This document shows, piece by piece, positions 13,193-34,380 of a stretch of 45,137 bases of DNA. Made by a program: the position numbers and the translations under genes. This DNA comes from Escherichia phage vB_Eco_Sem3, in sequence record PV775410.1. One strand, 5' to 3'. The notes under the pieces are model-generated. The model worked only from the letters and a program-made list of their open reading frames with translations, searched no databases and was not told the origin of the DNA. Within the stretch, counting starts at the first letter, position 1. Each line of letters begins with the position of its first letter.

Positions 13193-16141
13193 CTACAACT
13201 TAAATTTACCTACCTTAGAACCTTTAGCTAGCTTGGTAGGTGCAGCCTCATAAACTTGATACCAACCATTCGCGCCAATACGTTTATGAGTCCATGCCGA
13301 GACAGAGCCTGCTGGCATAGGTCCACCAAACCTAACCCACATGGAGCCATCTTCACGAGTCTCCACTTCGGTAATCTTAGGCACACCACCAGCAGATGCC
13401 ATATTGTATGCCTCAGCGCGTCGCTTCAGTAGACCAGGGATACGCTTACCTTCACTTGATGCAGTGCCCAGCATTTCGATAAAGCCTTCCGTAAGCTTAC
13501 CAGCTTTGAATGCAGCAAGAGCACGCGGTGAGTTCTGGATTCCACCTTTACCTAAATTGTAGGTTAAATCCATCAAGCCACGTTGCTGTGCAGGATGCAT
13601 CTGGTCAAACGGAATCTTCCAGTCACGAGTAGGAGGCACATGCTTCTTGGCATCTTGCTCCATAAGAGCGCGAGCCTTGCTCTCTGTAAGCTGAGACATA
13701 GACCCTCGATAGGGAACTAGTTCATCACCAATCTTAATATACCCGTTTCGCTTCTCTTCTTCCGTTAAGAAATGACCGTAACCGATAGACTCACCGCGAG
13801 CGTCTTTATATGGAGTAAAGGTTCCAGTTGCTCTATTAAAGCCAACTTTGTCTTTATTCTCATCCATAGCTAGCTTGTCATAGAATTGTTGCATATTACC
13901 TCGATAGTTAATCTCGAAGTTAGAAGGCAGATTCTCACCAGAAGCAAAAGCTGAAGACATGAGGAAGTTAGCTAGTCCAAATTTACCAATATCTTTGGCA
14001 GTTGGTTTAGCTGGCATAGGCTCTTGTACACCAATATCTGTACGATACGGGTGAACATACTCGCCTTTATCTCGTTCCTCTACTTTCTTCTGATAGGCAG
14101 AATCTAGTAGTGAAGTAGTATCTAAAGAGGTTACAGGGATTACTCCAGAAAGAGGGCGACCTGCTGCACCAGCACGAATCACAAAAGTTCCTTTCTGTTC
14201 ATTGTAATCAATGTATATATCATCTTTAGTTTCCCACTCTTGAAGCTCCTTCTTCAATTCTGGCATCTGTGTTTCTACATACCTACCAAGCGCCAGAGGT
14301 ACATCGGTAGGGTTTACGCCTTTCCCAACTGACATAAGCATATCAGATGCAGAAGTGTAATCACCTTTAATGAAATAGCCACCGGAAGTCTTTGCATCCT
14401 CTGTTTGAGTGTAGCGTTTATTGCCCCAAGTAATTAAAGCCTTCTTGATAGAATCCATGTTACGCATACCACTAGACCACAACATATTGGCCTTAGCTCG
14501 TAACTCTTCTTCCGCAATAGCTTTACCTAAGTCTGACACTTCGGTTTTACCATCAAACCAGCCAGCACCAGATACCTCATCCAGTGCATCTCCAATAGCT
14601 GAGTTGAACTTCTTGGTTTCCTTCTCAGTACGAGAGAATTTCTGCTGTGCTTCACGCGCAAACCTTGCAGCCTGCAAGGGTGTCTCTCCCATTTGTAGTG
14701 CAGTGTTGTAGTTATCCATGTAGCCATTCACCGTGTCACCAAAGACACCTCGGCTCTCTTCTGGTAACTGTTCCCACAACTGGCGAATAGTCATCAACTC
14801 CTGTGGTTCGCCCTTGGCAAAGTGCTCAGGCGATAGCATAGATTCCATGGCTTTGATACGAGACTCAAAGGTATCATCCACTAAGCCTTTGGAGTTCATG
14901 AATTGCAGGCGCTGCACTTCCACTGCACCACGAATAGCTTCAGCCTCTTGACTGTAAGGGTCCAAGCCACGTTGTTTGATTTGCTGGTCTGCATAAAGTT
15001 GGCTATCCTGTTTGATAACATCAATGTAAGCCTTCTTCTCTTTATCAGTCTTACCTTGGAAGCCAGTAAGGCGGTCGGAGTAAAGCTCACGTCGCATATC
15101 CTGCATTGCACCTAGCTCTGCATTCTGCTTAGCCCGTTGGCGCATCAGTGCCTCTAGCTCTGGATTAGAGAAGACAGAGTTACCTGTCAGATTATTAATG
15201 TGCTGTGCTCGTTCCAACAATTCTTCATCAGTTAAATCACCTGCAAGGTAGGATTCTTTAACTTCGAAAGACATACGAGTTACATCAGCTACATTATTCC
15301 TAGCCCAAACTGCATTACCACTAGTGATGGCTGTGATAAGCTGTGGATTCTTAGCATAAACAGAAACACCCTTATCGTCCTTCACATACTTCAGGGCTTC
15401 AGCCATGCTAACATCACCGCCTTGTGCAAGTGAAATTGCTCGCTGGACTAACTTCTTGTGCATCTGTTCAGGTAGTAACCCTTGAGTAAGACCTTCGCGG
15501 ATTCGTTCCTGTAAAGCATAGCCAGAGGCTTCAGGGTCAATATTAGAATCCCAAGTAGAAGCCACTCGCCCGTCAAAGGTATCCTCACGGTCTGCTTGTT
15601 CACGGTCAAGTTTATGCTGGGTTCGTGTAGCCCAAATCTGAGGCTGCTGTTCTTGGAAGACATTAGTGACCATACGCATAGTATCTTTGTCACCTTGCAA
15701 CTCAGGGTATTGCTGGAACAGCTTATTCTGCATCTCATTACGAGAGTCAACCATAAGTTGTGTCCACTCGTCATCCGTTCCTTGGAAACGAGTAGCCATG
15801 TCTTTCATTCGTGCTGCTTCATCATTAGCTAGCAGTTGAGCTTTGACAAGCATGTTAGCACGAGCGCCACCACGAGTTGCATCCTCAGAAGGCATTAATC
15901 CGTTATATGCCCGTTCCATTTGAACAACCTTATCTTCCTCAATCTTTTGATTAAGGATACCAGTGGTTACATCAGCTACACTACTGGCTGCTCGAATAAG
16001 GTCTTCGATAAATCGACTACCGGAGGTAGAAGCTACGCCAGCCTCCACACCTCCAACTCGCTGAGGTGCAAAGGTCATGACATTAGGGGAAGTGGCCTGC
16101 ACTTGTGGCAGACCTTGTACTGCTTGTCGCTCAATTGCCAT
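13193..16141 (-). CDS. Internal virion protein with lysozyme-like peptidoglycan hydrolase domain, 982 aa
   Basis: C-terminal region (…GYGHFLTEEEKRNGYIKIGDEL…LTESKARALMEQD…GLMDLTYNLGKGG…) looks like a phage lysozyme fold; TAATG overlap with the upstream gene. Confidence 0.6.
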   Translation of the reverse strand: MAIERQAVQGLPQVQATSPNVMTFAPQRVGGVEAGVASTSGSRFIEDLIRAASSVADVTTGILNQKIEEDKVVQMERAYNGLMPSEDATRGGARANMLVKAQLLANDEAARMKDMATRFQGTDDEWTQLMVDSRNEMQNKLFQQYPELQGDKDTMRMVTNVFQEQQPQIWATRTQHKLDREQADREDTFDGRVASTWDSNIDPEASGYALQERIREGLTQGLLPEQMHKKLVQRAISLAQGGDVSMAEALKYVKDDKGVSVYAKNPQLITAITSGNAVWARNNVADVTRMSFEVKESYLAGDLTDEELLERAQHINNLTGNSVFSNPELEALMRQRAKQNAELGAMQDMRRELYSDRLTGFQGKTDKEKKAYIDVIKQDSQLYADQQIKQRGLDPYSQEAEAIRGAVEVQRLQFMNSKGLVDDTFESRIKAMESMLSPEHFAKGEPQELMTIRQLWEQLPEESRGVFGDTVNGYMDNYNTALQMGETPLQAARFAREAQQKFSRTEKETKKFNSAIGDALDEVSGAGWFDGKTEVSDLGKAIAEEELRAKANMLWSSGMRNMDSIKKALITWGNKRYTQTEDAKTSGGYFIKGDYTSASDMLMSVGKGVNPTDVPLALGRYVETQMPELKKELQEWETKDDIYIDYNEQKGTFVIRAGAAGRPLSGVIPVTSLDTTSLLDSAYQKKVEERDKGEYVHPYRTDIGVQEPMPAKPTAKDIGKFGLANFLMSSAFASGENLPSNFEINYRGNMQQFYDKLAMDENKDKVGFNRATGTFTPYKDARGESIGYGHFLTEEEKRNGYIKIGDELVPYRGSMSQLTESKARALMEQDAKKHVPPTRDWKIPFDQMHPAQQRGLMDLTYNLGKGGIQNSPRALAAFKAGKLTEGFIEMLGTASSEGKRIPGLLKRRAEAYNMASAGGVPKITEVETREDGSMWVRFGGPMPAGSVSAWTHKRIGANGWYQVYEAAPTKLAKGSKVGKFKL

Positions 16142-16861
16142 TAAATACCTCTTGTTCCAGATGAATATGTACGAGAATCAGTTAAAGCTTTACCTAAAGC
16201 CATGCCGGACTTACTACCTGTTACATAGGCAGATGCCAGACTCGGTATACCTTGCACCAAGGTGCTCACGGCAGAAGGCTTCTTAAACTCACGCATCTGC
16301 ATCTGTCCACCTCGCTGGATAGATTTAAGCTGATTGGTGAAGTTAATCTTCTGATTCTCATAGTTATCAATAATTGTACTCTGGTTCCTCCCGCCCTCTG
16401 CTGCTAAGTCATTCAGCATAGAAGATACAGAGTTACCACCAGTACCAGTAGCACCTGCTAGTAATGCAACCTGTGCTCGCTGCTGTAGTAGTGAAGCCTG
16501 ATTGCTTATTGCATCTGCATGATATTGTTTAGCAGCAGAACGCTCTGCATCTGCTACTGTTTTGTATGCTTCTTGTGTAGCAATAAGTTGCTGCCGCCAC
16601 TGTTCTTCTTGTGCTTTCTTCATTGCCTTGGCTTCATCACTTCCACCAAAGAGATCACCAATCAAGCCTAAACCTTGAAGGCCAGCACCAAGAAGCCCAG
16701 CATTAGAGAAGCCAGCAGTAGAGCCGCTTAGGAAGCCACCTAGAGAACCTAGCAAGCCTCCGCCACCTGCGGCAGCACCTCCAGCAGCGGCTGCTGCAGC
16801 TGCCTGTAAACATACTACCAATAGAAGACATACCAGCCATAACGGCAGAACCTATAGCCAT
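16141..16861 (-). CDS. Internal virion protein A-like (Gly/Ala-rich), with an apparent frame discontinuity near the 5' end
   Basis: Strong RBS AAAAGGAGGG plus ATG at 16861 (TAATG-coupled to tail tubular B) opens a frame that turns Cys/Arg/Trp-rich after about 20 codons; the long Gly/Ala-rich ORF (16141-16821) is in the +1 frame and has only a TTG start with no RBS. Confidence 0.5.
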
Positions 16862-19263
16862 TAGACCCTCCTTTTGGTTGGATTGTAGCTCCCTTCCCAC
16901 TCAATATCACGAAGCTGGAATGTGTGGGGTGACTCTACAATAATACGATAAACAACATCCGTGCTCTTAGCTCTCAGTGGAAATCTGAAGACACCTTCTC
17001 TCGGTTCAACATAGCCTACTGTATTATTGAGAGCACCACCTATACGGTTTGACGCTAATACTCTACGTACTTTACCACTCTTCACATTCTTAACTTCTAC
17101 GGAGAAATCGGGGTACATGTCAAGATTAAGGTGAACCAATCCTACAACTGGTACATCAATATAGGATACACGGTCTTGATTGTCTCTGATAACCACAGGT
17201 GTAGGTTCAAACTCTTGAGGGTAAATCTGACCAACAATAACCTTCGCTTTTACATGACTGTCATCATACATATCAAAGGTTGTAGACAAAGTATTGTCAC
17301 TAGGGTTGTACTTGAATAAGAAAGAGCCACCAATATATGAATCCCAACCCTCGATTAAGATGCAATCTAAAAGTTCTGGGTTAGTAGGAGTCCAAGGAAG
17401 CGGTTCAGACACCCATTCATCTTCTGCTTTAAAATACTTGAAGACTAACTCTGCTTGCCTATCCATTCTGATGCGGTCATTCAAACCGTAGGTTAGTGCA
17501 TCACCCATGTCCATCTTCTCCAGATATACGCCATCTCCTCGCTCAAGGAGCAGGTAAAGTAATTCACCAGAATAAAACATACCTCGCACCTTTGTACCTA
17601 TAGGCCACTTCCATACATGCCATGCCGATTGTACACGGTCTGTTCCTTGCCATAACCAATCGTAGCAGTAGATTATGTTACGATACTTATCGGTAGTGAC
17701 AAGTAACCTGTTGACATTGGTGCTTGCTGCCATGTTGGTAATGTTACCTTCGATGAGTTTATTCACATGACTTGTGATTGCTTGTGCCTTCTTAGTGTCA
17801 CTATAAGAGTCTGTATAGAACTCTCGTACACCAGAGTAAGAACCATCATTAGTGGCAAACATTACCGATTCACCAGTTACTACTGGCTTCACTTTATTGT
17901 TCACTTCAAATGTTGTAACAGGCTTAAGAAGTGCATTTGACTTCTCTAAAGGCTTATCGCCTGGCAGTATGAATTGTGACTTATCAGAGAACAACACGGT
18001 AGCGCCATCTAAGGTCACTGCATGTTTTAGCTGGTAGACTTCACTAGCATCTGAGAAAATATCAAATGGGTCAGTTGCCAATGCAGAGATAACCGTATAA
18101 CGAAAGAAATCGAAGAAGTATGATGTACGAGAAGCAATAACCGCTTCACCTGCTGTAAAGCATAGGCGGTTCTGCACCATGAACATTCCACCTATTGTCT
18201 GGGGTACCTCCTCATCAATAAAAGAGGGCATAGGGTTAGTCAAGTCATCCCCTACTTTACGATCTTCCCAATCACCTTGTCTTATCTTGAATTGAGCTAT
18301 GCCGTTGATGATATCTGTACGTTCAATAATGTAAGGCATTGTGCCTTTATCAAACCCAAGTAATACATCAGCAGCTATTGTTTCTTTCCAAGACACAAGG
18401 TTTCCCTCTTTAGGCTCAGCTTGCAGCCAGTAACGAGACTCAGGTTTGCTGCCAGTAGGCCACACTTGTACTTTATAACCAGCAGGCGCACGAGAAGGGA
18501 GTAGGTCAGTAGAGCTAACTTTATTCTTGATAGCCACTAAGTCCTTACCTTTTGCACCATCGGTGGTTGTTATTGTAAAGCTAGCACCATCCCGTCTCTC
18601 GATAAATATACTAGTACCGTCTCTTTGTATTTCATAGTCACTCACACCGCTCCATTGCTGCAACTTAGAGTACAATTCAGAAGTGATACGTTCAGTTCGA
18701 ATTTGTTCAACATGGTCTGCACTTCCACCATCCGGTGTTTTAAAACTAGCAGCGTTGGTCCCATTAATTACAATGGAATAAGATGTACCATATTGACCAT
18801 ACGCACAAAACACAATGGCTTTGTTTCCAACTTTAGGTGACTTCCTGTTACTAGCTTTAACTACCTTCCTACGATTAAGCATGAAAGTAACATCAGCTAT
18901 CGTCATGAATTGTACATCTTCCCTTGGATTAACAACCTCAGAGAGGTAGGTCATAGGTGCATCTTGTGAAGTAACATTACATTTGCGCCCATACTTATCA
19001 AATATCTCAGGAACTTGTCCTTTCTTCAACGTGAAGAAATACTCTTCATCACCATCACCTCTGCGATAATGATGAATAGCCATGTCATCAGTCCCCGCAT
19101 CAAGTATCTTTGCAATATGAGTTGTACCCATGCGTGATTGAGTACCATTCACTACATCAGGTATCATATTAACCATAGCTGTGCACTGACCATCCAAGCG
19201 TACCGCTGGCGGCTGCTGGCTAATCCCTTGGATTTGTCTACCTAATGAACCTTGTACTTCCAT
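16861..19263 (-). CDS. Tail tubular protein B
   Basis: About 800 aa, T7 gp12-sized; start at MEVQGSLG with RBS GGGAGGA and a 1-nt overlap with the tail tubular A stop. Confidence 0.85.
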   Translation of the reverse strand: MEVQGSLGRQIQGISQQPPAVRLDGQCTAMVNMIPDVVNGTQSRMGTTHIAKILDAGTDDMAIHHYRRGDGDEEYFFTLKKGQVPEIFDKYGRKCNVTSQDAPMTYLSEVVNPREDVQFMTIADVTFMLNRRKVVKASNRKSPKVGNKAIVFCAYGQYGTSYSIVINGTNAASFKTPDGGSADHVEQIRTERITSELYSKLQQWSGVSDYEIQRDGTSIFIERRDGASFTITTTDGAKGKDLVAIKNKVSSTDLLPSRAPAGYKVQVWPTGSKPESRYWLQAEPKEGNLVSWKETIAADVLLGFDKGTMPYIIERTDIINGIAQFKIRQGDWEDRKVGDDLTNPMPSFIDEEVPQTIGGMFMVQNRLCFTAGEAVIASRTSYFFDFFRYTVISALATDPFDIFSDASEVYQLKHAVTLDGATVLFSDKSQFILPGDKPLEKSNALLKPVTTFEVNNKVKPVVTGESVMFATNDGSYSGVREFYTDSYSDTKKAQAITSHVNKLIEGNITNMAASTNVNRLLVTTDKYRNIIYCYDWLWQGTDRVQSAWHVWKWPIGTKVRGMFYSGELLYLLLERGDGVYLEKMDMGDALTYGLNDRIRMDRQAELVFKYFKAEDEWVSEPLPWTPTNPELLDCILIEGWDSYIGGSFLFKYNPSDNTLSTTFDMYDDSHVKAKVIVGQIYPQEFEPTPVVIRDNQDRVSYIDVPVVGLVHLNLDMYPDFSVEVKNVKSGKVRRVLASNRIGGALNNTVGYVEPREGVFRFPLRAKSTDVVYRIIVESPHTFQLRDIEWEGSYNPTKRRV

Positions 19264-20000
19264 TAACGATCCTCCCACGGACGGAGCGCCCAACTCTCAT
19301 AAGGTGAATGAGAGTAAGCAGGTACATTCTGAGAGCCACCAGCCATGATACCAAACTGACGCTGAGTGGGGTTATGTACCAGCATGTTTAATCTCTTCTG
19401 TGACATTTGCTCAGATTGTACATCCATAAGAAGCTGAGTGGCTATCTGCTGCGCAGTGGCTAGCTTAGTCTGATCTGCATCCTTAGACACAATAAACTCT
19501 ACAGCAGCTTGATAGGCAATAGCCTGCATTACACTTGTAGGTAAATGCTCGTAGGGTAGTAAGGTGAGTAAGGTAAGACGAATCATACCATTAGCATTAA
19601 CATGCTTACGCATATCAAAGGTGTGACTCCAAGTAGAGTAGAGCTTACCTGCACGCATAGTCATAGGCACTTTCTTCTCACCCAATGCGTAGCACTGCAA
19701 TACAGCTAGGCAGTTATTAGGCAAGTTAATCTCACCGTTCGTATCTGGTGCAAGCTGCCAGTTAGGTTCACGATTGAACCACCAGCCACCGCCTTTGTTA
19801 TACTGGAAGCGCTGGGATACAATATCAATCATCTTACTTGCATCTTCAGCATCAAGGTCGCCTGAGTCGAGAGAATCCACACCCTCACGACCAATGGCTC
19901 GCATACAAAGGTTAACAGCCTCCAGCTTACTATCAATCACTTGAAAGGCTACATCTGAGACAGTATAGCCAGTGTAACTTTGTTGTTTAATAACAGGCAT
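19263..20000 (-). CDS. Tail tubular protein A
   Basis: About 245 aa; start at MPVIKQQ (RBS AGGAGGA); directly follows the capsid gene and terminator as T7 gp11 does. Confidence 0.8.
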   Translation of the reverse strand: MPVIKQQSYTGYTVSDVAFQVIDSKLEAVNLCMRAIGREGVDSLDSGDLDAEDASKMIDIVSQRFQYNKGGGWWFNREPNWQLAPDTNGEINLPNNCLAVLQCYALGEKKVPMTMRAGKLYSTWSHTFDMRKHVNANGMIRLTLLTLLPYEHLPTSVMQAIAYQAAVEFIVSKDADQTKLATAQQIATQLLMDVQSEQMSQKRLNMLVHNPTQRQFGIMAGGSQNVPAYSHSPYESWALRPWEDR

Positions 20001-20011
20001 GAATCCTCCTA

Positions 20012-20047
20012 ACAAAAAGAACCCTACCTACGCAAGGTAGATAGGGC
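20012..20047 (-). terminator. Hairpin plus U-tract terminator after the major capsid gene (T-phi-like)
   Basis: Minus strand reads GCCCTATCTACC-TTGC-GTAGGTAGGG followed by TTCTTTTTG. Confidence 0.65.
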
Positions 20048-20054
20048 ATAGGTA

Positions 20055-21260
20055 TTACTCAGCAGGTTTCATTGCAGTCGGCTTAATGTCATTAGCCATG
20101 ACAGCACGAACAGCAGCAACTAAGTCTTCAGCAGACAGACTAGCAGCAGCGGCAGCACCTGCCGGAGCAGCATTCTTGACGTATACAGCTTTGCGCTGTG
20201 CACGGTTAAGAACTTGAGTGTGCTGTGCTCCACCAGTACCCTCAGCATCACCAGTAGATGAGTTACGCTTAGTTGTCACAACAGACACTGCTTCCCAACG
20301 ATCAGGGATTGCACCTTCAGACATAAAGGTGTCAATGTAATAGGTCTTCTCTTTCTTCTCATAGAAGATATCACCTGTTACATCAATTGAACGACCAACA
20401 AGAAGAGCGTCAGCTGTGAACAGTACAGCGATAGCGCCATTCATTTCTGCAGTCGGGTCATAACGATAACCGTTGTCTTCATTTGACAGCAGGTGATGTT
20501 TCTGATCAGCAGAGAATTTAGGGAAGCGGTTAGACGGGATAACAGGGCAGTTGTAAGAAGACAGAACAAAACCCTGAATGGTTGCACCAGACTGGCTAAT
20601 GGTGTAGCTCTTGTCAACGATACGGTCTGCATCACGCAGTACGTTGAAGTAGCGCCATGGCATCAGAATAGCTACATCAGAGATATCAACTTCCTGCTCA
20701 AGCTGCTGCTCCAGAGCAAACTCTACAGCCGCCATTACATACTGCGGGTTGACCATCGCTTCTCCTTCATTGACCTCTACGTTGACAGAGAAGCCATGGC
20801 CTTTCACACGAGGGTTTTTGCGCTTAGCCTGAGTGTTGGCAATACCGCCCAGCAGCATCTGCTGAATCAGCATTTCATCTTCCATCTTCTTCAGCTGCTT
20901 CGCTTGGTTAGTAGCCAGCTTCGGCTTCAGGCTATCAATGTCACCCTGTACGTCGTGCAGGTGAGCAACAGTGTTACGAGCAATAACAGTGGCATCAATT
21001 ACCAGCTGGTTTTTATCTGCCTGAGTAGAGGTTGCAGCCGGAGATTGGCCCGGTGCCAGAACCTGCAACTCTGTTTCACCCAAATATTTGTTGCTTACAG
21101 TGTTAGTACCAGTAACAGTCTGAACATCAAAGTAGGACATGATGTTCTCACCTTTCAGGTACTGCTCATTTACCTTGCCATTGAATTTCTCAATGAGAAG
21201 GCTGTCTACCTCGCCGGAAGCAGAGACTGCAACGTTGGTCAGGTTATTCGGGGTGCTCAT
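20055..21260 (-). CDS. Major capsid protein
   Basis: 401 aa; strong RBS AAGGAGG; preceded by the strongest-looking phage promoter and followed by a terminator; T7 gp10-like size and position. Confidence 0.9.
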   Translation of the reverse strand: MSTPNNLTNVAVSASGEVDSLLIEKFNGKVNEQYLKGENIMSYFDVQTVTGTNTVSNKYLGETELQVLAPGQSPAATSTQADKNQLVIDATVIARNTVAHLHDVQGDIDSLKPKLATNQAKQLKKMEDEMLIQQMLLGGIANTQAKRKNPRVKGHGFSVNVEVNEGEAMVNPQYVMAAVEFALEQQLEQEVDISDVAILMPWRYFNVLRDADRIVDKSYTISQSGATIQGFVLSSYNCPVIPSNRFPKFSADQKHHLLSNEDNGYRYDPTAEMNGAIAVLFTADALLVGRSIDVTGDIFYEKKEKTYYIDTFMSEGAIPDRWEAVSVVTTKRNSSTGDAEGTGGAQHTQVLNRAQRKAVYVKNAAPAGAAAAASLSAEDLVAAVRAVMANDIKPTAMKPAE

Positions 21261-21307
21261 TAATAAACCTCCTTATAAATCAAATTGATAATTTAGGGAG
21301 ACATTTC

Positions 21308-21331
21308 TCCCTTCTATAGTGTCCAGTAAAT
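21308..21331 (-). promoter_or_regulatory. Phage RNAP promoter upstream of the major capsid gene
   Basis: Minus strand reads ATTTACTGGACACTATAGAAGGGAGA. Confidence 0.75.
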
Positions 21332-21336
21332 ACTGA

Positions 21337-22257
21337 TTACAGACCGCGAGCCATACCAGCACGACGGCGAGCATCCAGTTTAGCCTGATACTCAGCAGCA
21401 GCTTTCTTGTCTGTACCGAAGCGAGAGCTAAGAGTCATCATCTCACGCAGGTACTGCTCACGAGAGAGTGGGCCATTATCTTCAGATGCAGCAGCAGGTG
21501 CAGAGGGTTCAATCAGGTTTGGTTTGTCATCACCCTGTGCAGACTTACGGCGGCTCTCCAGTTCACGCACAGCGTACTGCTGGAGGTACTGGTTGCCAGA
21601 CTCCATCACCGCATTGAATGCCGTGAGTTCGTCATCGGATAGCGTTTCAAGCGCCCACGCCTCAAGACGTGACCACCCTTCTTCACCACCAACTTCCTTA
21701 GAGATATCAGAGAAGCGCTGAGTGTTAGCTGCTTCCCGCTCTTTAGCTGCGTTGGCTTCTTTCAGGAAGAAGGCTTCATTTTGAGCCTTAAGACCTGACA
21801 GGTAAGCATCTACCGCAAACTTGCCAAAAGCATCATACAATTTCTGCTTGGTTGCATCTGACAGTTCAAACTTGCCACCTTTGGAATAGAGTTCCTTGGC
21901 AACCTGCTTGGCATCAATGCCTTTCTCTTTAAGGCTGTCAGTTACATCCTGTGGGATGTCTATTGTTACTTCATGTTCTCCGAAGAAGTATTGCACTTCC
22001 TCAGTGTCGGTCGCGGTATCATCTGGCTTAGATTCACCATTCTCTCCGCCATTGTCTCCTTTTTCTGAAGGCTGTCCAGAAGCTTCTCCTCCGGTGTCTT
22101 CAGTAGGTTGTGCACCAGCATTGTCATCTTGTACAGCAGTGCCAGCGTCAGCAGGAGCATCAGTAGTAGCAGCATCAGTTGTTACCTCCTTGGTTTCTAC
22201 CGGACCCTCTTCAGCAGTAGGGTGAGTGGTTGACGGTTCAGTAAATGAGAAAGACAT
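21337..22257 (-). CDS. Scaffolding protein
   Basis: 306 aa, acidic with a low-complexity N-terminus and helical C-terminus; between portal and capsid genes; TAATG overlap with portal. Confidence 0.75.
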   Translation of the reverse strand: MSFSFTEPSTTHPTAEEGPVETKEVTTDAATTDAPADAGTAVQDDNAGAQPTEDTGGEASGQPSEKGDNGGENGESKPDDTATDTEEVQYFFGEHEVTIDIPQDVTDSLKEKGIDAKQVAKELYSKGGKFELSDATKQKLYDAFGKFAVDAYLSGLKAQNEAFFLKEANAAKEREAANTQRFSDISKEVGGEEGWSRLEAWALETLSDDELTAFNAVMESGNQYLQQYAVRELESRRKSAQGDDKPNLIEPSAPAAASEDNGPLSREQYLREMMTLSSRFGTDKKAAAEYQAKLDARRRAGMARGL

Positions 22258-23807
22258 TACGCCTCCTTAAGTTCTTGTTGAATTACACCCGGCACGGCCT
22301 TAGCCACACCTTCTTCAAGCATCTGTGCTTGCTGTGCTTGCATCTGTGCTTCCTGTTCTTGTGCTATCTCTTCAGCCGATTTAAGGAACGGCAGTTCAGC
22401 AGAGATTTGACCACGCACCCAATCCATATAGTCAGGCCATTTCACAGCAGCTAGGACAGGCTCAGGCCATTGTAATGGCAGTGACATATACTGAGCAAAG
22501 TTAGCCAGTTTATCCAACTCAGCCATGCGTCCTAAAGCTTCAATACCTGTGATTATCACAGGGTCCACTAGGTCACTAGTGAAGGACTCACCTGCCTCCA
22601 GCAGACCCCACATCGCTACTGGCGATTGCATAGTAGTAGCAAAGAGGGAGTATACACCACCCATGTTCTGCTCAATCTCTAACGCATCTCGCTGGATTTC
22701 TACAGCAGTAACACGTTCGGCGTCACGGCGTGTCATTGTCTCCATCATGAAGACAACACCGATACGGCGAGTGTATACCTCTAGAACCGCGCTAATAGGT
22801 GTGAGGTCTGCATACTTACCTAACTGTACAATATGGATGTCTTCTTCTACACCAGTGACAACCTCACCAGTGCCAGAGTTAACAAAGTGGTCAACATCAG
22901 TTTGAGCACCCGGACGAATCAGGTACTTGATATCTGCCATCAGCGCAGCACCACGGGCAACCGCTTCAGATAAGAATTGGATAACGAATAAATCACCGGA
23001 GTAATCCTCTGCAAGAGGGCGACCCCAATCCTCACCATAGCTTCGCTTCCAAGTTAATGGGATGAAAGGTAGCTTTTCTGATTTGATTTTACTCACCTTA
23101 CCCACAGGGATATCATCAGCAGATTGCTTGAGTTCCCAAAATCCATCACCAAGATACTTAGCATGTGTGTACAGCTTAACGCTGTCATCTTCTTTGCACT
23201 TCTTACCTTTCAGGCCAACCTCTACTACAGCACGTGTAGCTGGGTCAAAGGTACGTAAGGCTTTCTCTTGTAGCAAGATAATGTCTAGCAGGTCGCCATT
23301 GGTATCACGGTTAACTACGTAGTGATGCATTGGGATAGCACTGATTGCACCTTTGCTCGGCTTGTATAGCAGACAGCTGCCAGCAACAATAAGATGCTTA
23401 AATGCTTCTACTACAGCAGGCCGGAATTGACGTTGCTCTAACTCTTTCATTGCCCGTGTTTCCACTTGAGCGAAGATAGTAGCTAACTCTGTCTTCTTCA
23501 GGCCACGCTGATTAAGAACCTTCTCACCTTGTGCAGTTAAGTCTACACGGAAGAAGGAACGCTGTGCAGGGAATAGCACTTGCGCTAGCTTGTTGGCTAG
23601 ATGGTTAGTTGCCTGAGCACCCACACCTTGCCATCCATTCTGCGAAGTCTCATTATCACCTTTGTCATTCATCAGATAGGGCAAGGTTAATTTGGAGTAA
23701 TGCTTCGCCCTATCAAGGAAAGAGCTACGTTTAGTGGAGAATTTCTCCCATAGCTTAGGTATCTTAGACCGCTTACCTCCATACTCCAAATCTGTGCTCT
23801 GTTTCAT
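22257..23807 (-). CDS. Portal (head-tail connector) protein
   Basis: 516 aa, T7 gp8-sized; RBS GAAGGTG; assigned by size and synteny. Confidence 0.85.
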   Translation of the reverse strand: MKQSTDLEYGGKRSKIPKLWEKFSTKRSSFLDRAKHYSKLTLPYLMNDKGDNETSQNGWQGVGAQATNHLANKLAQVLFPAQRSFFRVDLTAQGEKVLNQRGLKKTELATIFAQVETRAMKELEQRQFRPAVVEAFKHLIVAGSCLLYKPSKGAISAIPMHHYVVNRDTNGDLLDIILLQEKALRTFDPATRAVVEVGLKGKKCKEDDSVKLYTHAKYLGDGFWELKQSADDIPVGKVSKIKSEKLPFIPLTWKRSYGEDWGRPLAEDYSGDLFVIQFLSEAVARGAALMADIKYLIRPGAQTDVDHFVNSGTGEVVTGVEEDIHIVQLGKYADLTPISAVLEVYTRRIGVVFMMETMTRRDAERVTAVEIQRDALEIEQNMGGVYSLFATTMQSPVAMWGLLEAGESFTSDLVDPVIITGIEALGRMAELDKLANFAQYMSLPLQWPEPVLAAVKWPDYMDWVRGQISAELPFLKSAEEIAQEQEAQMQAQQAQMLEEGVAKAVPGVIQQELKEA

Positions 23808-23808
23808 A

Positions 23809-24018
23809 TTACACCTTCAAGCTAGAAGCTACCGGACGGACAAGGCCACGCTTGCCTTTTGCAGATGCAGTAGCATCATCATCTCCTGCACCAATCTGAA
23901 TATCTTCAGCTTCAGTCTCTGGCTTACGCTCAAGCTGCTGTGCTGGCACTTTCGCTTCAATACGTGGTGCATCTTGAGCAAGACCGATAGCCTTAAATGC
24001 TTTCTTTACAACACCCAT
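23809..24018 (-). CDS. Hypothetical small protein, 69 aa (possibly a gp6.7-like virion protein)
   Basis: RBS AAGGAG; small charged protein immediately upstream of portal. Confidence 0.45.
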   Translation of the reverse strand: MGVVKKAFKAIGLAQDAPRIEAKVPAQQLERKPETEAEDIQIGAGDDDATASAKGKRGLVRPVASSLKV

Positions 24019-24027
24019 GTTATCTCC

Positions 24028-24489
24028 TTAGAACTTCAGGTTATACACAGTGCCAAACGGTTCAAAGCCAAGTCGCTTATACATACGTCCGACACGTTCT
24101 TCATTGATACCAGAGGCGATAGATAGACGGACCTCAGAGCATTCATTCTCATTGGCCCATTGCTTTAGGGCTTTGATGAGACGCATACCAAGAAGTGTTC
24201 CTCGCCTCTCTGGTATAATATAAAAGAGAATGTCAGAGGCAACTCTTACAGGCGTCCAAGGAGCCAACTCGTGATAGCCAGCCCACAGGAACCCTACAAT
24301 CTGCCCTTCATCTACAGCAACCCATAGGAATAAATCTTCTCTACTAAGAGATGCACAAAGGTTATGTGCACTTTGTTCTGCATTCCATGAGGCTGAGTGG
24401 TGGGCTACAACCTTGACTTCCTCTTCCACATATTTATTCCCAAGGTTTATAATCTCAGGAATATCTAGGAAGGAAGCTGGACGTATCAT
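24028..24489 (-). CDS. GNAT-family N-acetyltransferase
   Basis: Start at MIRPASFLDIPEI (ATGA-coupled to the upstream ORF); acetyl-CoA binding motif …FYIIPERRGTLLGMRLIKAL…. Confidence 0.75.
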   Translation of the reverse strand: MIRPASFLDIPEIINLGNKYVEEEVKVVAHHSASWNAEQSAHNLCASLSREDLFLWVAVDEGQIVGFLWAGYHELAPWTPVRVASDILFYIIPERRGTLLGMRLIKALKQWANENECSEVRLSIASGINEERVGRMYKRLGFEPFGTVYNLKF

Positions 24490-24656
24490 TGGACCACCAG
24501 TTGTGCTCTGACACAATCCATGATGTAACGCTTAACTTCATCAACGATTAACTCTTCATGAGTCTTAGTCACCTTAGGAGAAGAAGGCTTGAGAATCATC
24601 TCAAGCATCTCCATTCCTTCAAATGAAATCGTCGGTTTCTTCTTCGTCTGTACCAT
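24486..24656 (-). CDS. Hypothetical protein, about 56 aa
   Basis: Stop overlaps the GNAT start (ATGA), suggesting translational coupling; no clear RBS. Confidence 0.35.
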   Translation of the reverse strand: MVQTKKKPTISFEGMEMLEMILKPSSPKVTKTHEELIVDEVKRYIMDCVRAQLVVQ

Positions 24657-24816
24657 ATAATTCGTCAACCTTCTCTTGGATAGCTTCTACAGAAAGACCA
24701 AGTTCTTCTGCATCAGCCAGTAAAGTATATGGCACTTCCATGCCACAGGATAGAGTTTCGAAGATGGCCTCTGCTACCTCAACAGCACGAGTTGCCTTCA
24801 TAGAATCAAAAGACAT
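24619..24816 (-). CDS. Hypothetical acidic protein, 65 aa (MSFDSMKATRAVEVAEAIFE…DEEETDDFI)
   Basis: RBS AAGGAGG; the track ORF carries a 20-codon N-terminal extension. Confidence 0.5.
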   Translation of the reverse strand: MSFDSMKATRAVEVAEAIFETLSCGMEVPYTLLADAEELGLSVEAIQEKVDELYGTDEEETDDFI

Positions 24817-24933
24817 AATTAACCTCCTTTTAGTTGTGAATATAAGGAGTCTAATTCTTCTGACTGATAGCCCCACATGTAATAGTATTGCTCAATGGCT
24901 TCTATTAACAATTCAAGCTGTTTTTCGTTCAAA

Positions 24934-25881
24934 TCAATAAACATCAGGAACCTCCTTATCGTGGCGTAATTCAGAAACCTTGGGAAGTCTCAGGACTCCC
25001 TTGCTAGATTCCTGCAACGCCTTGACAGCGAAGATCTTCCCAATGACGTTCAGTTCGCCACCGTGCTTAATATCGTGATACATTTGGGCTGCATCCTCAT
25101 GTGACCAGCCACGACCCAGCATAGCCTTAACAGACTTGCCTCCTTTCCATTTGAAAATGAGGTTAGCTACTTTACCTTTATACTTACCTTTTCCTTCCTC
25201 CCACCCAATACAGGTTAGGTCGTAAGACACCATACGAACGATCTTCGTTTGACGATAGCCCTTGTGCCCACTTTCATACTCCACGTCAAGTTTAAACACA
25301 GCACCCTCTCGGCCTGCATCTATTTGCTCTTGCGCAAACGCTTCAACTTCTCGCTCATTATGGCAAGGAGTAATAGGAAGGATAGCGTTGTACCCGCTAA
25401 GATGAGTGCCGATGCGACGATGTAAAGCATCGTAACGTTTGAGATAAGAAACATCAGTGAATCCATCATGGAATGCCTTAATGGTTAACATATCAAAGAA
25501 GTCGATATACAGGTTGTCTTTAATCTGCTGGCCTATAAAGTCAAGTGGCTCTGTACGATTAGGGTTTACCACTCCTGACAGAGCTTCAAGATAAACATCA
25601 ACAGCCATAGATTGCAACTCACCAAGATACAACCCGACAGGAAATACACTAAATGTCTTTTCCAAGGCTTCAACATTTGCGAGTTTCTTACCAGTACGAC
25701 CAAAGATGGCAACAGCACCATCATTGCGCACCACAACAGCACTGAATATTCCATCTCGTTTCACCTGTGCATAACATGGAAAAGTAAGTTTCTTCTCAGG
25801 AACTTCACCGCGATGCTTCACCAGCATGAATGGATGATTGCGGTGGTCTTCTGGAAGACCTAGGAATTGGAAGATGTTCAT
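24934..25881 (-). CDS. ATP-dependent DNA ligase
   Basis: 315 aa; adenylation motif …AQVKRDGIFS… (KxDG) and downstream EGAVFK motif; RBS AAGGAGG. Confidence 0.85.
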   Translation of the reverse strand: MNIFQFLGLPEDHRNHPFMLVKHRGEVPEKKLTFPCYAQVKRDGIFSAVVVRNDGAVAIFGRTGKKLANVEALEKTFSVFPVGLYLGELQSMAVDVYLEALSGVVNPNRTEPLDFIGQQIKDNLYIDFFDMLTIKAFHDGFTDVSYLKRYDALHRRIGTHLSGYNAILPITPCHNEREVEAFAQEQIDAGREGAVFKLDVEYESGHKGYRQTKIVRMVSYDLTCIGWEEGKGKYKGKVANLIFKWKGGKSVKAMLGRGWSHEDAAQMYHDIKHGGELNVIGKIFAVKALQESSKGVLRLPKVSELRHDKEVPDVY

Positions 25882-26556: not shown

Positions 26557-26642
26557 ATTGAATCCTCCATTCACTATACAATCAAGGGCTAGTGCAATAT
26601 CATTTGGATACGCCATCCGATAAAGTCTTACCTAGCCCTTTG

Positions 26643-26662
26643 TTCTATAGTGTCAACTAAAT
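26643..26662 (-). promoter_or_regulatory. Variant phage promoter-like sequence (GTCAACT core)
   Basis: Minus strand reads ATTTAGTTGACACTATAGAA; intergenic. Confidence 0.4.
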
Positions 26663-31830: not shown

Positions 31831-34380
31831 TCAGTGTGTTTCCTTCCAGCTTGCGCCAATCTTATATTCTCCTGCCATCGGGCAACGCATCTTCAGATAC
31901 TGCCCTGCCCAAGTCATGGCGTCGGCAATGATATGACCTGCACGGTGATAGCGGCGCTGGCAATGCAATACACCAGCATCAGCATCAACGCTAACGAGGT
32001 TTGCAGCAGACCACATACGTCCTTCAGAATCCACATGAATACGTTTCTCCTCTGCATCGAAAACTGCTTTCACAGCAGCCTTCTCTGTTTCGAACCCATC
32101 TAAGGTGAAAGGTAGGTCGTAGTTAAGATACAAGACCTCCTCTTCAGGAACTTCCATCTGGATTTCATCATGCACGTTAGCCACACCACAAGGATTTCCC
32201 ATAGCATCCAAAGCTACACCTTCCTTGCGCATTACTGCAAATGCCTTGACTAATGCATATTTCATACACAAAGAGCCAGTCATCTGGAGTAATACGTTAA
32301 GCATCGTGTGCTCTTTAAGTTCACCACCAGACATGCGGATGCGACCCCAATGCCCATCAGGTGCTTGCAGGTAGCCAAACTTGTTACCTTGTGCGATAAC
32401 ATTCTCACGAAGACGTGCAAGAGACGGTAGTTCAATCTCGAATCTTGCCACAACTTCCTTCATTTCTTCCTCAGTAACACCGCAGACTGCTGCAAGGTTG
32501 GCTATACCAGAACCATAGAGGAAGGCGTATATAAACGTCTTCGCCATATCACGCTTAGGAAGACCAGCCTTCATCTGGTTATGCGTATGAATATCACCGT
32601 GCAGTACAATCTCTTGGTACTCAGGGTCATTCATGAAGTGAGACAGGACACGCAGTTCAAGACCTGCACCGTCACAACCAAGAATTAGCTTGCCTTTCCC
32701 TGCTATGAATAAATCACGTAAAGGATACAAGCCACGGGCAGGAATATTAACCACGTTACGATGACGCATACGGAACGTAGAAGTGCCAATACTAATAGCA
32801 ACAGCTGGAACACGCCACTCTCCGTCATCTTTGTCAGACGTAGGCCAACATCCGTACCTCTCGTAGTATTGCTGCGCATTGATTCCTAGCTCCTTGTTGA
32901 ATGCTACAGGTACAAGGCCGCGACACTTTCGTACACCAGCCTGCGAGGGCCACGTTCCCTTCTCGTTGAAGGCTTCAACGTCACCACGGTTGAGTATCTG
33001 ACCACGACGGGATACGAGTATGTACCATGCAGCGATACCCAAGCACCAATCAGGGACTGTTTTACCTTCACGTGCGGCTCTTTCTTGCCATAAAGTGAGA
33101 GACTTTTCATTTATCTTACCACTCCAAGGTTTTGGTAACACTCCGTGCTCATCGAGATGAGCTTGCTCGGTATCGTTAAATTCAACACCTTTCCATCCAT
33201 ACTCATAGAGCACTTGCTTAACTGTATCCCTGTTACCCAAGGGAATCTCTTCGAAAGTAACAGGCGAGTAAGCGCCAATCCACTTGATGCTTGGCGTGTC
33301 ATTACGGTTTCCTCTAAGGTGAGGAAAGTCTTTCTTGACACTAGCCGACCAATCACCAGACTTAGTAGTGACACTCCATACTGTCTTGCGATCTCCTCGT
33401 CTCTCGGCATGAAGAAAGTGTGAGGGGTCAAGGACAGTAGGTATATTGTTGCTAGCTCCATACTCATTTGCGCGTTGGCATACTTCATTCTTTTCTTCCG
33501 GTTTAAAAGGTTTAGACTTGATACGCATAGGCATGTGAGGGCGGAACGCTGCGACTGTCTCATCAATCTTAGCGTCCAATTCTTCGCATCGGGCCAAAGC
33601 CTTGTCTATGTCCAGACGGAACCCGCGCTCGGCCTGACGGCTCATCTCCAGCGCCACAATGGACTCCATGTGGAAGGCTGTCTCAATGCCTAGGCCCGTG
33701 CGTTTATTCACGCCACGGCGTTTGTGCTCCATCCATTCCCCGTTAAAGAGCCAGAGGAACAAGTCACGACCAATCGCCACGTCCTCACGTACACGGTGAA
33801 CCATGTGGTCAGTTAGTTTAGACCAGTCCTCGTTCTCCGGTTTATAGCGACCTATACGGATGCCGTGCGCCTCAATTGAGTGAGGGGCGACGTTACCCAT
33901 ACCTTTGGCATATGCTTGCGGAGGAAGGCGTCTATCGGGGTTTAACAGGCGACTCATCACCAGCGTATCGACCACCTTAATGGGACACAAGTCTGCCCTT
34001 AAGCTGCCTTTGCCACGACGCTGGGTATAATTATACCCTTTCCAGATATCTGGAAATGCTTTCTCTAAAGCTAAACCATCATAGCCTAAGAAGTTTTGAG
34101 AAACGATAGCATCCGCATGATATAGGAAATTAACACCATCTTCCAGAGTACCATCTTGATGTCCTTCCCATTCAACTAAATGCTCTCTTGCAGAAGGATC
34201 TCTATTCTCAAATGAGTTAAAGAAAAGAAACTCTTCGGTAGTTAGTAGATCTACGCAGCAGATAATATGGACATCGTGATTACCTTTACCATAACGTATA
34301 GCGTCTAACAAACCTTTCGCTTCCAAATCCATAACTAGGATTCTGCCTTTAGCGGCCTCTTTCCAATTAATACCTTTCAT
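31831..34380 (-). CDS. DNA polymerase (family A, with 3'-5' exonuclease domain)
   Basis: 849 aa; N-terminal exonuclease-like region (…VMDLEAKGL…) and C-terminal polymerase motifs (…LHGDIHTHNQ…, …KTFIYAFLYGSG…, …VANVHDEIQMEV…); T7-like position. Confidence 0.9.
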   Translation of the reverse strand: MKGINWKEAAKGRILVMDLEAKGLLDAIRYGKGNHDVHIICCVDLLTTEEFLFFNSFENRDPSAREHLVEWEGHQDGTLEDGVNFLYHADAIVSQNFLGYDGLALEKAFPDIWKGYNYTQRRGKGSLRADLCPIKVVDTLVMSRLLNPDRRLPPQAYAKGMGNVAPHSIEAHGIRIGRYKPENEDWSKLTDHMVHRVREDVAIGRDLFLWLFNGEWMEHKRRGVNKRTGLGIETAFHMESIVALEMSRQAERGFRLDIDKALARCEELDAKIDETVAAFRPHMPMRIKSKPFKPEEKNEVCQRANEYGASNNIPTVLDPSHFLHAERRGDRKTVWSVTTKSGDWSASVKKDFPHLRGNRNDTPSIKWIGAYSPVTFEEIPLGNRDTVKQVLYEYGWKGVEFNDTEQAHLDEHGVLPKPWSGKINEKSLTLWQERAAREGKTVPDWCLGIAAWYILVSRRGQILNRGDVEAFNEKGTWPSQAGVRKCRGLVPVAFNKELGINAQQYYERYGCWPTSDKDDGEWRVPAVAISIGTSTFRMRHRNVVNIPARGLYPLRDLFIAGKGKLILGCDGAGLELRVLSHFMNDPEYQEIVLHGDIHTHNQMKAGLPKRDMAKTFIYAFLYGSGIANLAAVCGVTEEEMKEVVARFEIELPSLARLRENVIAQGNKFGYLQAPDGHWGRIRMSGGELKEHTMLNVLLQMTGSLCMKYALVKAFAVMRKEGVALDAMGNPCGVANVHDEIQMEVPEEEVLYLNYDLPFTLDGFETEKAAVKAVFDAEEKRIHVDSEGRMWSAANLVSVDADAGVLHCQRRYHRAGHIIADAMTWAGQYLKMRCPMAGEYKIGASWKETH

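Follow-up and report, generated by a model that had tools for sequence, protein, structure and literature searches.

The window, the whole 45,137-nucleotide stretch of Escherichia phage vB_Eco_Sem3 DNA analysed here (PV775410.1), belongs to a Vectrevirus (K1E/K1-5/SP6 group). The gene of interest, which encodes a protein with a GNAT acetyltransferase fold, stands at the boundary between the replication and virion genes, where the virion block begins. It and its neighbours are, by descending coordinate:

24934..25881, minus strand: ATP-dependent DNA ligase, the last recognisable DNA-metabolism gene upstream (ORF; annotation of relatives)
24819..24944, minus strand: 41-aa ORF with a strong Shine-Dalgarno, overlapping the ligase stop (ORF; annotated in PV775411)
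24619..24816, minus strand: gp25 homologue (K1E gp25), acidic, 65 aa (phrog_5860, E=4e-39)
24486..24656, minus strand: gp26 homologue (K1E gp26), 56 aa (ORF; the protein reads MVQTKKKPTISF...VVQ*)
24486..24489, minus strand: ATGA overlap of the gp26 TGA stop and the GNAT ATG start (direct sequence reading)
24028..24489, minus strand: gene for a 153-aa GNAT acetyltransferase, orthologous to K1E/K1-5 gp27 and to the SP6 acetyltransferase (ORF list)
23809..24018, minus strand: gp28, 69 aa, homologue of T7 gp7.3, a small tail/ejected virion protein (phrog_9033, E=3.6e-13; phrog_1320, E=8.7e-12)
22257..23807, minus strand: portal (head-tail connector), homologue of T7 gp8 (ORF; annotation in K1E and relatives)

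Both the GNAT ORF and the gp26 ORF are real genes. The GNAT protein begins with MIRPASFLD and contains the internal motif FYIIPERRGTLLGMRLIKALKQW, the one cited in the initial annotation of this locus. A weak Shine-Dalgarno-like GGTGG lies 5' of the ATGA overlap. The gp25 ORF shares 38 nt with the start of gp26 and has a strong Shine-Dalgarno of its own (AAAGGAGGT), and the 41-aa ORF upstream of it gave zero family matches in Pfam and PHROG. On the other side, gp28 begins 9 nt after the GNAT and is followed by the portal gene; T7 gp7.3 itself matches phrog_1320 (E=9.7e-30). The pair had been described as lying inside the replication module, a placement that has to be corrected, as the gp7.3-like gene and the portal come next.

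Gene order from the ligase through gp25, gp26, the GNAT, gp28 and the portal to the scaffold was kept in 29 of 29 SP6-like IMG/VR loci, as far as the contigs extend. Conservation of gp25 was seen in these loci, and gp26 was found in all 28 that have DNA upstream of the GNAT; the contig of the 29th (L017) begins only 28 nt upstream of it. The same order is preserved in K1E, Era103, AS51, uligo and CPP1m. More widely, a slot composed of a small ORF, the GNAT, a small virion protein and the portal recurs in Molineuxvirinae, Colwellvirinae, Krylovirinae and Ghunavirus, with equivalent GNAT slots in LUZ19, phiB1_1, MR8, Axy23 and LIMEzero. In the Ghunavirus phages KNP and Henninger the GNAT sits between the gp6.7-like and gp7.3 genes. 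The slot corresponds to the position of T7 gene 7 and of LUZ19 gp28 (Rac). Virions of phiPsa17 contain gp6.7 and gp7.3, and the gene-7-slot protein is absent from them (PMC4517105). The earlier statement that the gene falls outside the canonical T7 gene set is right in part: T7 itself has no recognisable GNAT, but in the SP6/K1E group the gene belongs to the core set and stands where T7 has gene 7, a place that a GNAT also fills in Ghunavirus and in phiKMV-like phages.

A search with the SP6-type promoter consensus returned 8 matches in the window, compared to 0 expected by chance. The transcription signals that frame the GNAT gene are:

26642..26662, minus strand: phage RNA-polymerase promoter, the nearest upstream of the GNAT, with 2 mismatches (SP6-type consensus)
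21311..21331, minus strand: next phage promoter downstream, before the major capsid gene, which closes the GNAT-portal-scaffold unit (SP6-type consensus)
20021..20047, minus strand: strong intrinsic terminator downstream of the capsid gene, in a position like that of T7 T-phi (11-bp stem and T-run)

A promoter directly before gp25, as in T7 (phi6.5), was also sought, and none was present within 3 mismatches of the SP6-type consensus. On this map the phage RNA polymerase transcribes the GNAT gene as part of a single unit that also holds the genes for nucleotide kinase, ligase, gp25, gp26, gp28, portal and scaffold.

The GNAT fold proposed in the initial annotation was borne out by Pfam, PHROG, AlphaFold and Foldseek alike, and the profile and model data indicate that it is intact. 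The protein matched PF00583 (Acetyltransf_1; E=1.8e-10, 41.6 bits, cutoff 20.7), PF13508 (38.9 bits, cutoff 27) and PF13673 (26.0 bits, cutoff 23.6), and the "acetyltransferase" profile phrog_1249 covered residues 1-151, that is, the full length (E=1.2e-53). The AlphaFold2 model (pLDDT 90.3, pTM 0.86) has the predicted topology b1-a1-a2-b2-b3-b4-a3-b5-a4-b6, and Foldseek returned 874 PDB matches for it at E<=1e-3, with GNATs throughout among the matches listed (TM 0.7-0.81). The beta4-alpha3 loop reads ...PE-R-R96-G97-T-L-L-G101..., and the C-terminal element is N129-x6-Y136-x4-G-F. Among 72 diverse family members R96 is near-invariant; G97 is invariant in the family and position 101 is G, A or S, but the first Gly of the canonical R/Q-x-x-G-x-G/A loop is Leu99 in the window protein and is variable in the family. 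In motif B, conservation of N129 is at least 90%, either Y or F stands at position 136, and G141-F142 is conserved. The loop and the N...Y...GF element appear typical of GNATs that use acetyl-CoA. Comparison with SP6-group relatives gave dN/dS values of 0.05-0.22 (GNAT) and 0.09-0.48 (gp26), and the GNAT gene is under strong purifying selection. Structure prediction, which had been proposed as one way to name the closest GNAT subfamily, gave the fold but, with its mixed Foldseek matches, no single subfamily. Assignment to one specific subfamily was dropped, the searches having returned polyamine, phosphinothricin, aminoglycoside and N-terminal acetyltransferases side by side.

The partner gene gp26 matched phrog_6507 (E=2e-37). 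Its single-sequence AF2 model (pLDDT 84.8) has predicted helices at residues 12-22 and 33-54 and a basic, extended N-terminus. By eye its sequence had a beta-alpha-alpha look, and gp26 was considered as an RHH antitoxin; this candidate was rejected, as searches for gp26 in Pfam, NCBIfam, PADLOC and the PDB, and for its fold in Foldseek, were all blank. In particular, gp26 and 13 homologues showed no RHH or DUF1778 in Pfam at E<=1, and the PDB profile search returned no RHH chains for gp26 at E<=10. Nor was gp26 retained as a homologue of T7 gp6.7: it has no PF17570 match, the sequences are unlike, and the slot alone corresponds. The upstream small ORF is consistently present, with clear homology limited to the SP6 group and weak similarity beyond, as in the weak colinear similarity of gp26-like and LUZ19 gp27-like proteins (E=2e-3). 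The annotations of K1E and Pseudomonas phage uligo show the 4-nt overlap of gp26 and the GNAT as well, and Vibrio phage AS51 has it too. Overlapping gene junctions number more than 20 in this genome, however, and elsewhere the GNAT overlaps whichever gene lies upstream, be it tail tubular B (L038, L065) or a gp6.7-like gene; in several relatives it overlaps the downstream virion gene as well. The overlap would therefore represent ordinary operon packing with translational coupling, rather than a toxin-antitoxin-like pair, and the two-component unit that had been read from the ATGA junction is not upheld as stated.

Orthologues of the gene are well represented in public records. The DNA of the GNAT gene is 94-100% identical in 86 phage records, and K1E gp27, K1-5 gp27 and the SP6 acetyltransferase (Molineuxvirinae) have 76-98% protein identity to the window protein, with equal length and identical neighbours. 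The alpha1-alpha2 region of K1-5 gp27 has an in-frame duplication/insertion of 22 aa; nothing material otherwise separates the three proteins from the window GNAT. Within the SP6/K1E group the gene is part of the conserved, syntenic core, and it is already known as such. Its discovery value is low, because it has for years been annotated as an acetyltransferase in GenBank/RefSeq for the K1E, K1-5 and SP6 relatives, and identical proteins are public. No functional study of K1E gp27, K1-5 gp27 or the SP6 protein was found in the literature searched. The initial annotation had named, as one outcome adverse to its proposal, a common conserved core gene with a known housekeeping role. Given the conserved, syntenic status of the GNAT and the gene-7-slot GNATs of Ghunavirus and phiKMV-like phages, the gene is indeed a common conserved core gene, but a known housekeeping role was not found for it.

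We consider it somewhat probable (roughly 55%) that gp27 is the SP6/K1E copy of a GNAT that T7-supergroup podoviruses keep within the virion-gene block. As such, gp27 would act as a protein acetyltransferase that depends on acetyl-CoA, stays out of the virion and is produced from mid-infection onward. Its conserved role would bear on the completion of infectious particles, through acetylating or assisting small ejected or internal virion proteins or assembly partners. For this particle-completion role, taken as a part of the main explanation, we would give a little less than even odds, and in so compact a phage genome the neighbours of a gene are a weak argument for a morphogenetic function.

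The main alternative, an unlikely one in our estimation, is that gp27 has a host-directed activity like that of Rac. Rac (LUZ19 gp28) is a GNAT whose action leads to the alpha subunit of the host RNA polymerase being cut in its linker, an effect that needs the residues of the acetyl-CoA pocket (Ceyssens et al. 2020, PMC7552054), and Rac is toxic if expressed alone (PMC7552054). It is the sole experimentally studied occupant of the slot, and its target is the host, not virions. Rac resembles the window GNAT in its length (~155 aa), in its slot of small ORF, GNAT, small virion protein and portal, and in overlapping its neighbours. The two families aligned in hhalign with a probability of 95.8% (E=8e-9, 122 columns; 94.2% with the narrow alignment), and the only foreign PHROG match of Rac is phrog_1249. 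This homology is at the level of the GNAT superfamily only, as expected between GNAT families: the pairwise comparison was non-significant (BLASTP E=4.9; hmmsearch of the window-family profile against Rac, E=0.21), and the window GNAT, a member of phrog_1249, did not match the Rac family phrog_3986 at E<=0.01. The D-x-H-V-G motif, invariant in the 8 Rac-family sequences that we assembled from GenBank phage loci, is absent from the window GNAT, which aligns ...TPVRVASD... at that place. Rac also follows the phage RNA polymerase gene, whereas the window GNAT follows the ligase, and in SP6-like phages the RNA polymerase is made early, unlike in phiKMV. Host-takeover genes are usually poorly conserved, whereas gp27 is conserved in phages of hosts from Vibrio to Pseudomonas, always beside virion genes. 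The effect of Rac is moreover specific to the genus Phikmvvirus, the GNAT of LKA1 in the equal slot leaving alpha intact (PMC7552054). Rac had no effect on the growth of P. putida. With the LKA1 homologue lacking the Rac effect and P. putida growth unaffected by Rac, the function in the Rac/gene-7 slot is evidently not uniform.

The remaining alternatives are less probable still. The GNAT fold might serve as a non-catalytic scaffold or chaperone for small internal or ejected proteins, as assumed for T7 gp13. We regard this as improbable: the family does have members in the gp13 slot, motif A is imperfect, and T7 gp13, a "probable scaffold protein" in Pfam, reportedly matches acetyltransferases in HHpred; but the R96-G97 loop and N129...Y/F136...GF are kept over very divergent members, which is unexpected if the role is purely structural, and no similarity to the window GNAT was detectable for T7 gp13, which is without those motifs. 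A small-molecule substrate, such as a polyamine, an antibiotic or antimetabolite, or a nucleotide sugar, is a more doubtful proposition. The top PDB sequence match is the polyamine acetyltransferase Dpa (E=5e-5), the Foldseek list includes polyamine, phosphinothricin and aminoglycoside acetyltransferases, and the top NCBIfam match is ArsN1. These matches are at the generic GNAT level, however. When the named resistance and housekeeping GNATs AAC(6'), ArsN1, RimI and MshD were tested by their NCBIfam cutoffs, no characterised subfamily reached its own threshold with the window GNAT, the equivalogs staying far below (ArsN1a 28.3 bits against 170, AAC(6') group E 26.2 against 140, RimI 23.6 against 86.4). 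Protein N-terminal acetyltransferases (Naa60, RimL-like) are listed equally by Foldseek, and the structural-module context gives no support, so that the suggestion of aminoglycoside or other small-molecule modification found no specific backing. Least credible of all is a toxin-antitoxin-like unit, with the GNAT as toxin and gp26 as its small RHH-type antitoxin or regulator. Small GNATs on mobile elements include the type II toxins TacT, AtaT and KacT as well as the anti-CRISPR AcrVA5, and in GNAT toxin-antitoxin systems (TacAT, AtaRT, KacAT) a small upstream partner and a 4-nt overlap are usual. The locus shares the small gene, the GNAT and the overlap with them, gp26 has the predicted basic N-terminus and two helices, four groups have a small ORF before the GNAT (with the weak gp26/LUZ19 gp27 similarity), and Rac is toxic when alone. 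Unlike in those systems, neither the GNAT nor gp26 matches a toxin or defence model (NCBIfam, PADLOC), no DUF1778/RHH partner is present, gene overlaps of this kind are common throughout the genome, and the setting is a late, virion operon of a lytic phage.

A more daring proposal, to which we attach a low probability, is that gp26 (with LUZ19 gp27 and the Colwellvirinae equivalents) and the GNAT form a conserved module of three Autographiviridae subfamilies. The small protein would target or gate the enzyme, the enzyme would acetylate gp7.3-like proteins or IVPs as a maturation step needed for infectivity, and the host effect of Rac would be a lineage offshoot. To our knowledge, enzymatic acetylation as a virion-maturation step has not been described for tailed phages. 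The SP6/K1E gene offers a tractable E. coli/Salmonella system in which virion maturation can be set against host takeover.

The comparison with other podophages extends to the slot of T7 gp13, between tail tubular B and IVP-B. GNATs have been described in this slot in SIO1/cobaviruses and phiRIO-1-like phages, together with HHpred matches of T7 gp13, a reportedly morphogenetic protein, to acetyltransferases (PMC6775973, PMC4819975). We found phrog_1249 members there in L038, L065, L053, L061 and L062, and a GNAT among portal and tail-tube genes in at least six further loci. The gp13-slot GNATs (SIO1/cobaviruses, phiRIO-1-like, ZP6, L038, L065) are ~150 aa long and match phrog_1249 at E=1e-27 to 4e-33, those of L038 and L065 having 29-34% identity to the window protein. 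Like it, they are non-structural, lie inside the virion module and overlap the upstream gene; they differ in position, the window GNAT preceding the gp7.3-like gene and the portal. In the window, the tail tubular B and IVP-B genes (16861..19293 and 16141..16821) are adjacent, with a gap of ~39 nt and no gene between. T7 gp13 (PF11090, phrog_308) was considered as a displaced gp27 homologue and rejected, with no PF11090 match of the window GNAT at E<=0.1, BLASTP E=14, and an hhalign probability of 30% over the N-terminal 18 columns only (2% with -M first); it is kept as a literature-based lead.

T7 gp7 ("host range") lies in the homologous slot (6.5, 6.7, 7, 7.3, 8). It has no Pfam match, and literature on the function of gene 7 yielded nothing beyond gp7.3. 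The scan of T7 gp7 loci gave near-identical phages, and diverse members were added individually. Its alignment with the Rac family is colinear and takes in D-x-H-x-G (E=3e-4 to 1e-3). With the window GNAT no similarity was detectable beyond a link of 20-40% probability, which is at most suggestive of a relationship. Both T7 gp7 and gp13 are without the R-G loop and the N...Y...GF motifs. Very different T7-supergroup podophages retain one GNAT family, always amid virion genes: at the position of gene 7, at that of gp13, or between the portal and tail-tube genes. This raises the question of whether T7 genes 7 and 13, long known by mutant phenotype only, are degenerate members of the GNAT lineage.

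The GNAT gene singled out in the initial annotation is a conserved gene that had already been annotated, and it was read correctly as an acetyltransferase, as profile, structural and selection evidence confirm. The protein passes Pfam Acetyltransf_1 (E=1.8e-10, over the gathering score) and two more GNAT models, and it matches phrog_1249 ('acetyltransferase') at E=1.2e-53. The AlphaFold2 model, with 30 homologues in the alignment, has a pLDDT of 90.3 and the strand and helix order of a GNAT. Foldseek returned 874 PDB matches to this model at E<=1e-3, and those listed are all GNATs (TM 0.7-0.8). Comparison with SP6-group relatives indicates purifying selection on both ORFs, with dN/dS of 0.05-0.22 in GNAT and 0.09-0.48 in the upstream gp26. 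The R96-G97 loop, N129, Y/F136 and G141-F142 are kept across divergent family members, which argues that cofactor binding is retained; the loop of the window protein is without the canonical first glycine.

All genes in this part of the window are on the minus strand. The features are:

26642-26662, minus strand: nearest promoter upstream of GNAT
24934..25881, minus strand: DNA ligase
24819..24944, minus strand: 41-aa ORF with a strong Shine-Dalgarno, GATAAGGAGG
24619..24816, minus strand: gp25
24486..24656, minus strand: gp26, 56 aa
24028..24489, minus strand: GNAT, 153 aa, N-terminus MIRPASFLD, including the motif IIPERRGTLLGMRLIKAL cited in the initial annotation
23809..24018, minus strand: gp28, matching phrog_1320 (T7 gp7.3 family)
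22257..23807, minus strand: portal, with scaffold and capsid next
21311-21331, minus strand: next promoter downstream, ahead of the capsid gene
20021-20047: strong terminator after the capsid gene

Eight sites in the window match the consensus of SP6-type phage promoters with no more than 3 mismatches, all on the minus strand and most of them ATTTACTGGACACTATAGAAG; none is expected by chance. From the promoter and terminator positions, GNAT is co-transcribed with the nucleotide kinase, ligase, portal and scaffold genes. Gene order and the promoter map thus move the gene from "inside the replication module", where it had initially been placed, to the replication/virion boundary. T7 gp7.3, the relative of gp28, is a small tail/ejected virion protein (PMC11784390). 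GNAT is most likely a late-expressed, non-virion, acetyl-CoA-dependent protein acetyltransferase linked with the virion gene block. The 41-aa ORF starts within the ligase gene, sharing 11 nt with its stop end, and only 2 nt separate its own end from the gp25 ATG; it has no family match and is not annotated in K1E, and its region differs in several relatives, where megablast coverage falls to 89-92% in 2 or 3 pieces. An 8-bp GC-containing hairpin within the gp26 coding sequence (24587-24606, minus strand; GCTTGAGATGATTCTCAAGC) was flagged as terminator-like; because its tail is CTTCTTCTCC and not a T-run, a terminator is improbable here.

In this region the window matches Klebsiella phage vB_Ka_Sem4 and Escherichia phage vB_Eco_Sem1 at 100% identity and K1E and K1-5 at 94%, which places it in Vectrevirus (Molineuxvirinae, SP6 branch of the T7 supergroup). 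RefSeq annotates the K1E counterpart, gene 27, as 'acetyltransferase'; the 56-aa ORF corresponds to gene 26, and the identical GNAT protein is already present in NCBI and in many assemblies (146 member sequences). The initial annotation had allowed for a common conserved core gene with a known housekeeping role. The gene is indeed common and conserved, with tblastn finding the protein in 248 records of Escherichia, Klebsiella, Salmonella, Proteus, Erwinia, Vibrio, Pseudomonas syringae, Marinomonas, Ralstonia and Roseobacter phages, and a family-profile search showing the ligase-to-portal order in 29 of 29 SP6-like IMG/VR loci as far as the contig extends; a known housekeeping role did not emerge. 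The order ligase, small ORFs, GNAT, ~60-aa gp7.3-like gene and portal is common to K1E, Era103, Vibrio AS51, Pseudomonas uligo and Marinomonas CPP1m, which are Molineuxvirinae and Colwellvirinae. In AS51, three unannotated ORFs (3051-3224, 3196-3495 and 3956-4132) are gp25-like, gp26-like and gp7.3-like; the gp26-like one, of 99 aa, meets GNAT in an ATGA overlap, and this part of the RefSeq record appears as a 477-bp 'gap'. In K1-5, gene 27 (701-1228) encodes a 175-aa GNAT with a 22-aa in-frame insertion, a duplicated HHSASWNAEQSA flanking a short novel stretch. The insertion is equivalent to window ~24364-24370, in the alpha1-alpha2 region where the pLDDT of the window model is lower; outside it the protein is ~98% identical to that of the window.

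Some observations concern other genes and records. Four genes of window 16861-23807 (portal, major capsid, scaffold and tail tubular B) are each split into 2-3 CDS in the near-identical genome PV775411; the window has each of them as one uninterrupted ORF (516, 401, 306 and 810 aa, respectively). The splits are probably frameshift errors in the record, or the window derives from another isolate. The same record has two HNH homing-endonuclease genes (window ~467-843 and ~34367-34852, both minus strand), one directly adjoining the DNA polymerase gene; such genes are typical mobile insertions, variable among Vectrevirus genomes. The internal virion protein region appears as two neighbouring ORFs, one of 766 aa and one of 334 aa (9821-12121 and 12124-13128, minus strand), with one stop codon between them.

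The ATGA junction, initially taken as the sign of a two-component unit, is real and generic. The gp26 TGA stop and the GNAT ATG share three bases, with a weak GGTGG Shine-Dalgarno-like element just 5'. In the deposited annotation of the near-identical genome, more than 20 of 72 junctions overlap, including two others of 4 nt and nine of 1 nt. In gp13-slot phages the first 1-4 nt of GNAT lie within tail tubular B, in Ghunavirus GNAT overlaps a gp6.7-like gene, and in uligo, CPP1m, LUZ19 and KNP it also overlaps the downstream virion gene. A gp26 homologue is present in all 28 SP6-like IMG/VR loci that extend upstream of GNAT, at identities down to 43%, and the small ORFs that precede GNAT in SP6-like phages, Colwellvirinae and phiKMV-like phages can be aligned with no internal gap, with weak hhalign support (E=2e-3, probability 14%). 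Neither gp26 nor its 14 scanned homologues matched Pfam, NCBIfam, PADLOC or PDB sequences, and the single-sequence AlphaFold model (pLDDT 84.8; an extended basic N-terminus and two helices) had no significant fold match. GNAT itself matched no toxin or defence model in NCBIfam or PADLOC. On these grounds a toxin-antitoxin-like pair was rejected as a working model; that a gp26-type small protein is a conserved partner of GNAT would be the more novel reading, and an improbable one.

Structure prediction, initially proposed as a route to the closest GNAT subfamily, gave the fold but pointed to no particular subfamily or substrate class, and neither did the sequence searches. The PDB profile search yielded generic matches only (Dpa polyamine acetyltransferase, E=5e-5; unnamed GNATs; SSAT2; AAC(6')), Foldseek placed Naa60, Dpa, phosphinothricin/bialaphos acetyltransferases and RimL-like enzymes side by side, and every NCBIfam equivalog fell far under its cutoff.

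The GNAT position recurs elsewhere. By tblastn, Rac, the phiKMV-like GNAT (LUZ19 gp28), has relatives of 30-36% identity in Ghunavirus (gh-1-like Studiervirinae), encoded with a gp6.7-like gene on one side and gp7.3 on the other, at the T7 gene 7 position; window genes 25, 26, 27, 28 and 29 are therefore collinear with T7 6.5, 6.7, 7, 7.3 and 8. In phiPsa17 the ORF in this position is labelled gp7, and the virion proteome contains gp6.7 and gp7.3 and lacks gp7 and gp13 (PMC4517105). T7 gp7 ('host range') has no Pfam match and weakly matches the Rac PHROG (E=0.025); a 7-sequence gp7 alignment is colinear with the Rac family, including D-x-H-x-G (hhalign E=1e-3 to 3e-4, probability 20-40%). The relationship is suggestive, and T7 gp7 (gene 7, 1131-1532 in the T7 sequence compared) may be a degenerate GNAT sharing the Rac-like slot. 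Several marine podophages are reported to have GNATs after tail tubular B and before internal virion protein B (PMC4819975; PMC6775973), where the window has no gene. Remote relatives of the window GNAT occur in IMG/VR at 21-35% identity. In loci L038 and L065 these are phrog_1249 members (E=1e-27 and 4e-33) with tail tubular B (phrog_376) immediately on one side and IVP-B (phrog_418) on the other, L053, L061 and L062 have a GNAT likewise placed, and at least six further loci have it between portal and tail-tube genes or just 5' of the portal gene. One GNAT family thus occupies at least three different slots in the virion modules of podophages. T7 gp13 (IVP-A) is reported to match acetyltransferases by HHpred (Hardies et al., PMC4819975; cobavirus paper PMC6775973); the comparisons made here gave no link between it and the window family (BLASTP E=14, no PF11090 match, hhalign probability 2-30%).

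Because this structural-module context recurs across hosts, we lean towards a role for GNAT in making infectious particles. The main rival would be an effect on the host like that of Rac. The gene for Rac, a predicted GNAT, lies 3' of the phage RNA polymerase gene and overlaps the first of the structural genes. Expressed by itself, Rac causes the linker in the alpha subunit of host RNA polymerase to be cleaved, an effect that is lost upon mutation of acetyl-CoA pocket residues and is not seen with the LKA1 homologue in the Rac position (PMC7552054). P. putida growth is unaffected by Rac. Pairwise and profile-sequence comparisons of the window GNAT with Rac were not significant. The sole non-self PHROG match of Rac is phrog_1249 (E=4.9e-4), and profile-profile comparison of a 72-sequence window-family alignment with an 8-sequence Rac-family alignment gave 95.8% probability (E=8e-9, 122 columns). 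By these comparisons the homology is at the GNAT-superfamily level, and positional orthology rests on synteny. The Rac family has an invariant D-x-H-V-G motif, which the window GNAT lacks, whereas the gene arrangement is the same: LUZ19 has gp27 (83 aa), the gp28 GNAT, gp29 (a virion protein) and the gp30 portal, an arrangement also present in phiB1_1, MR8, Achromobacter Axy23 and Pantoea LIMEzero.
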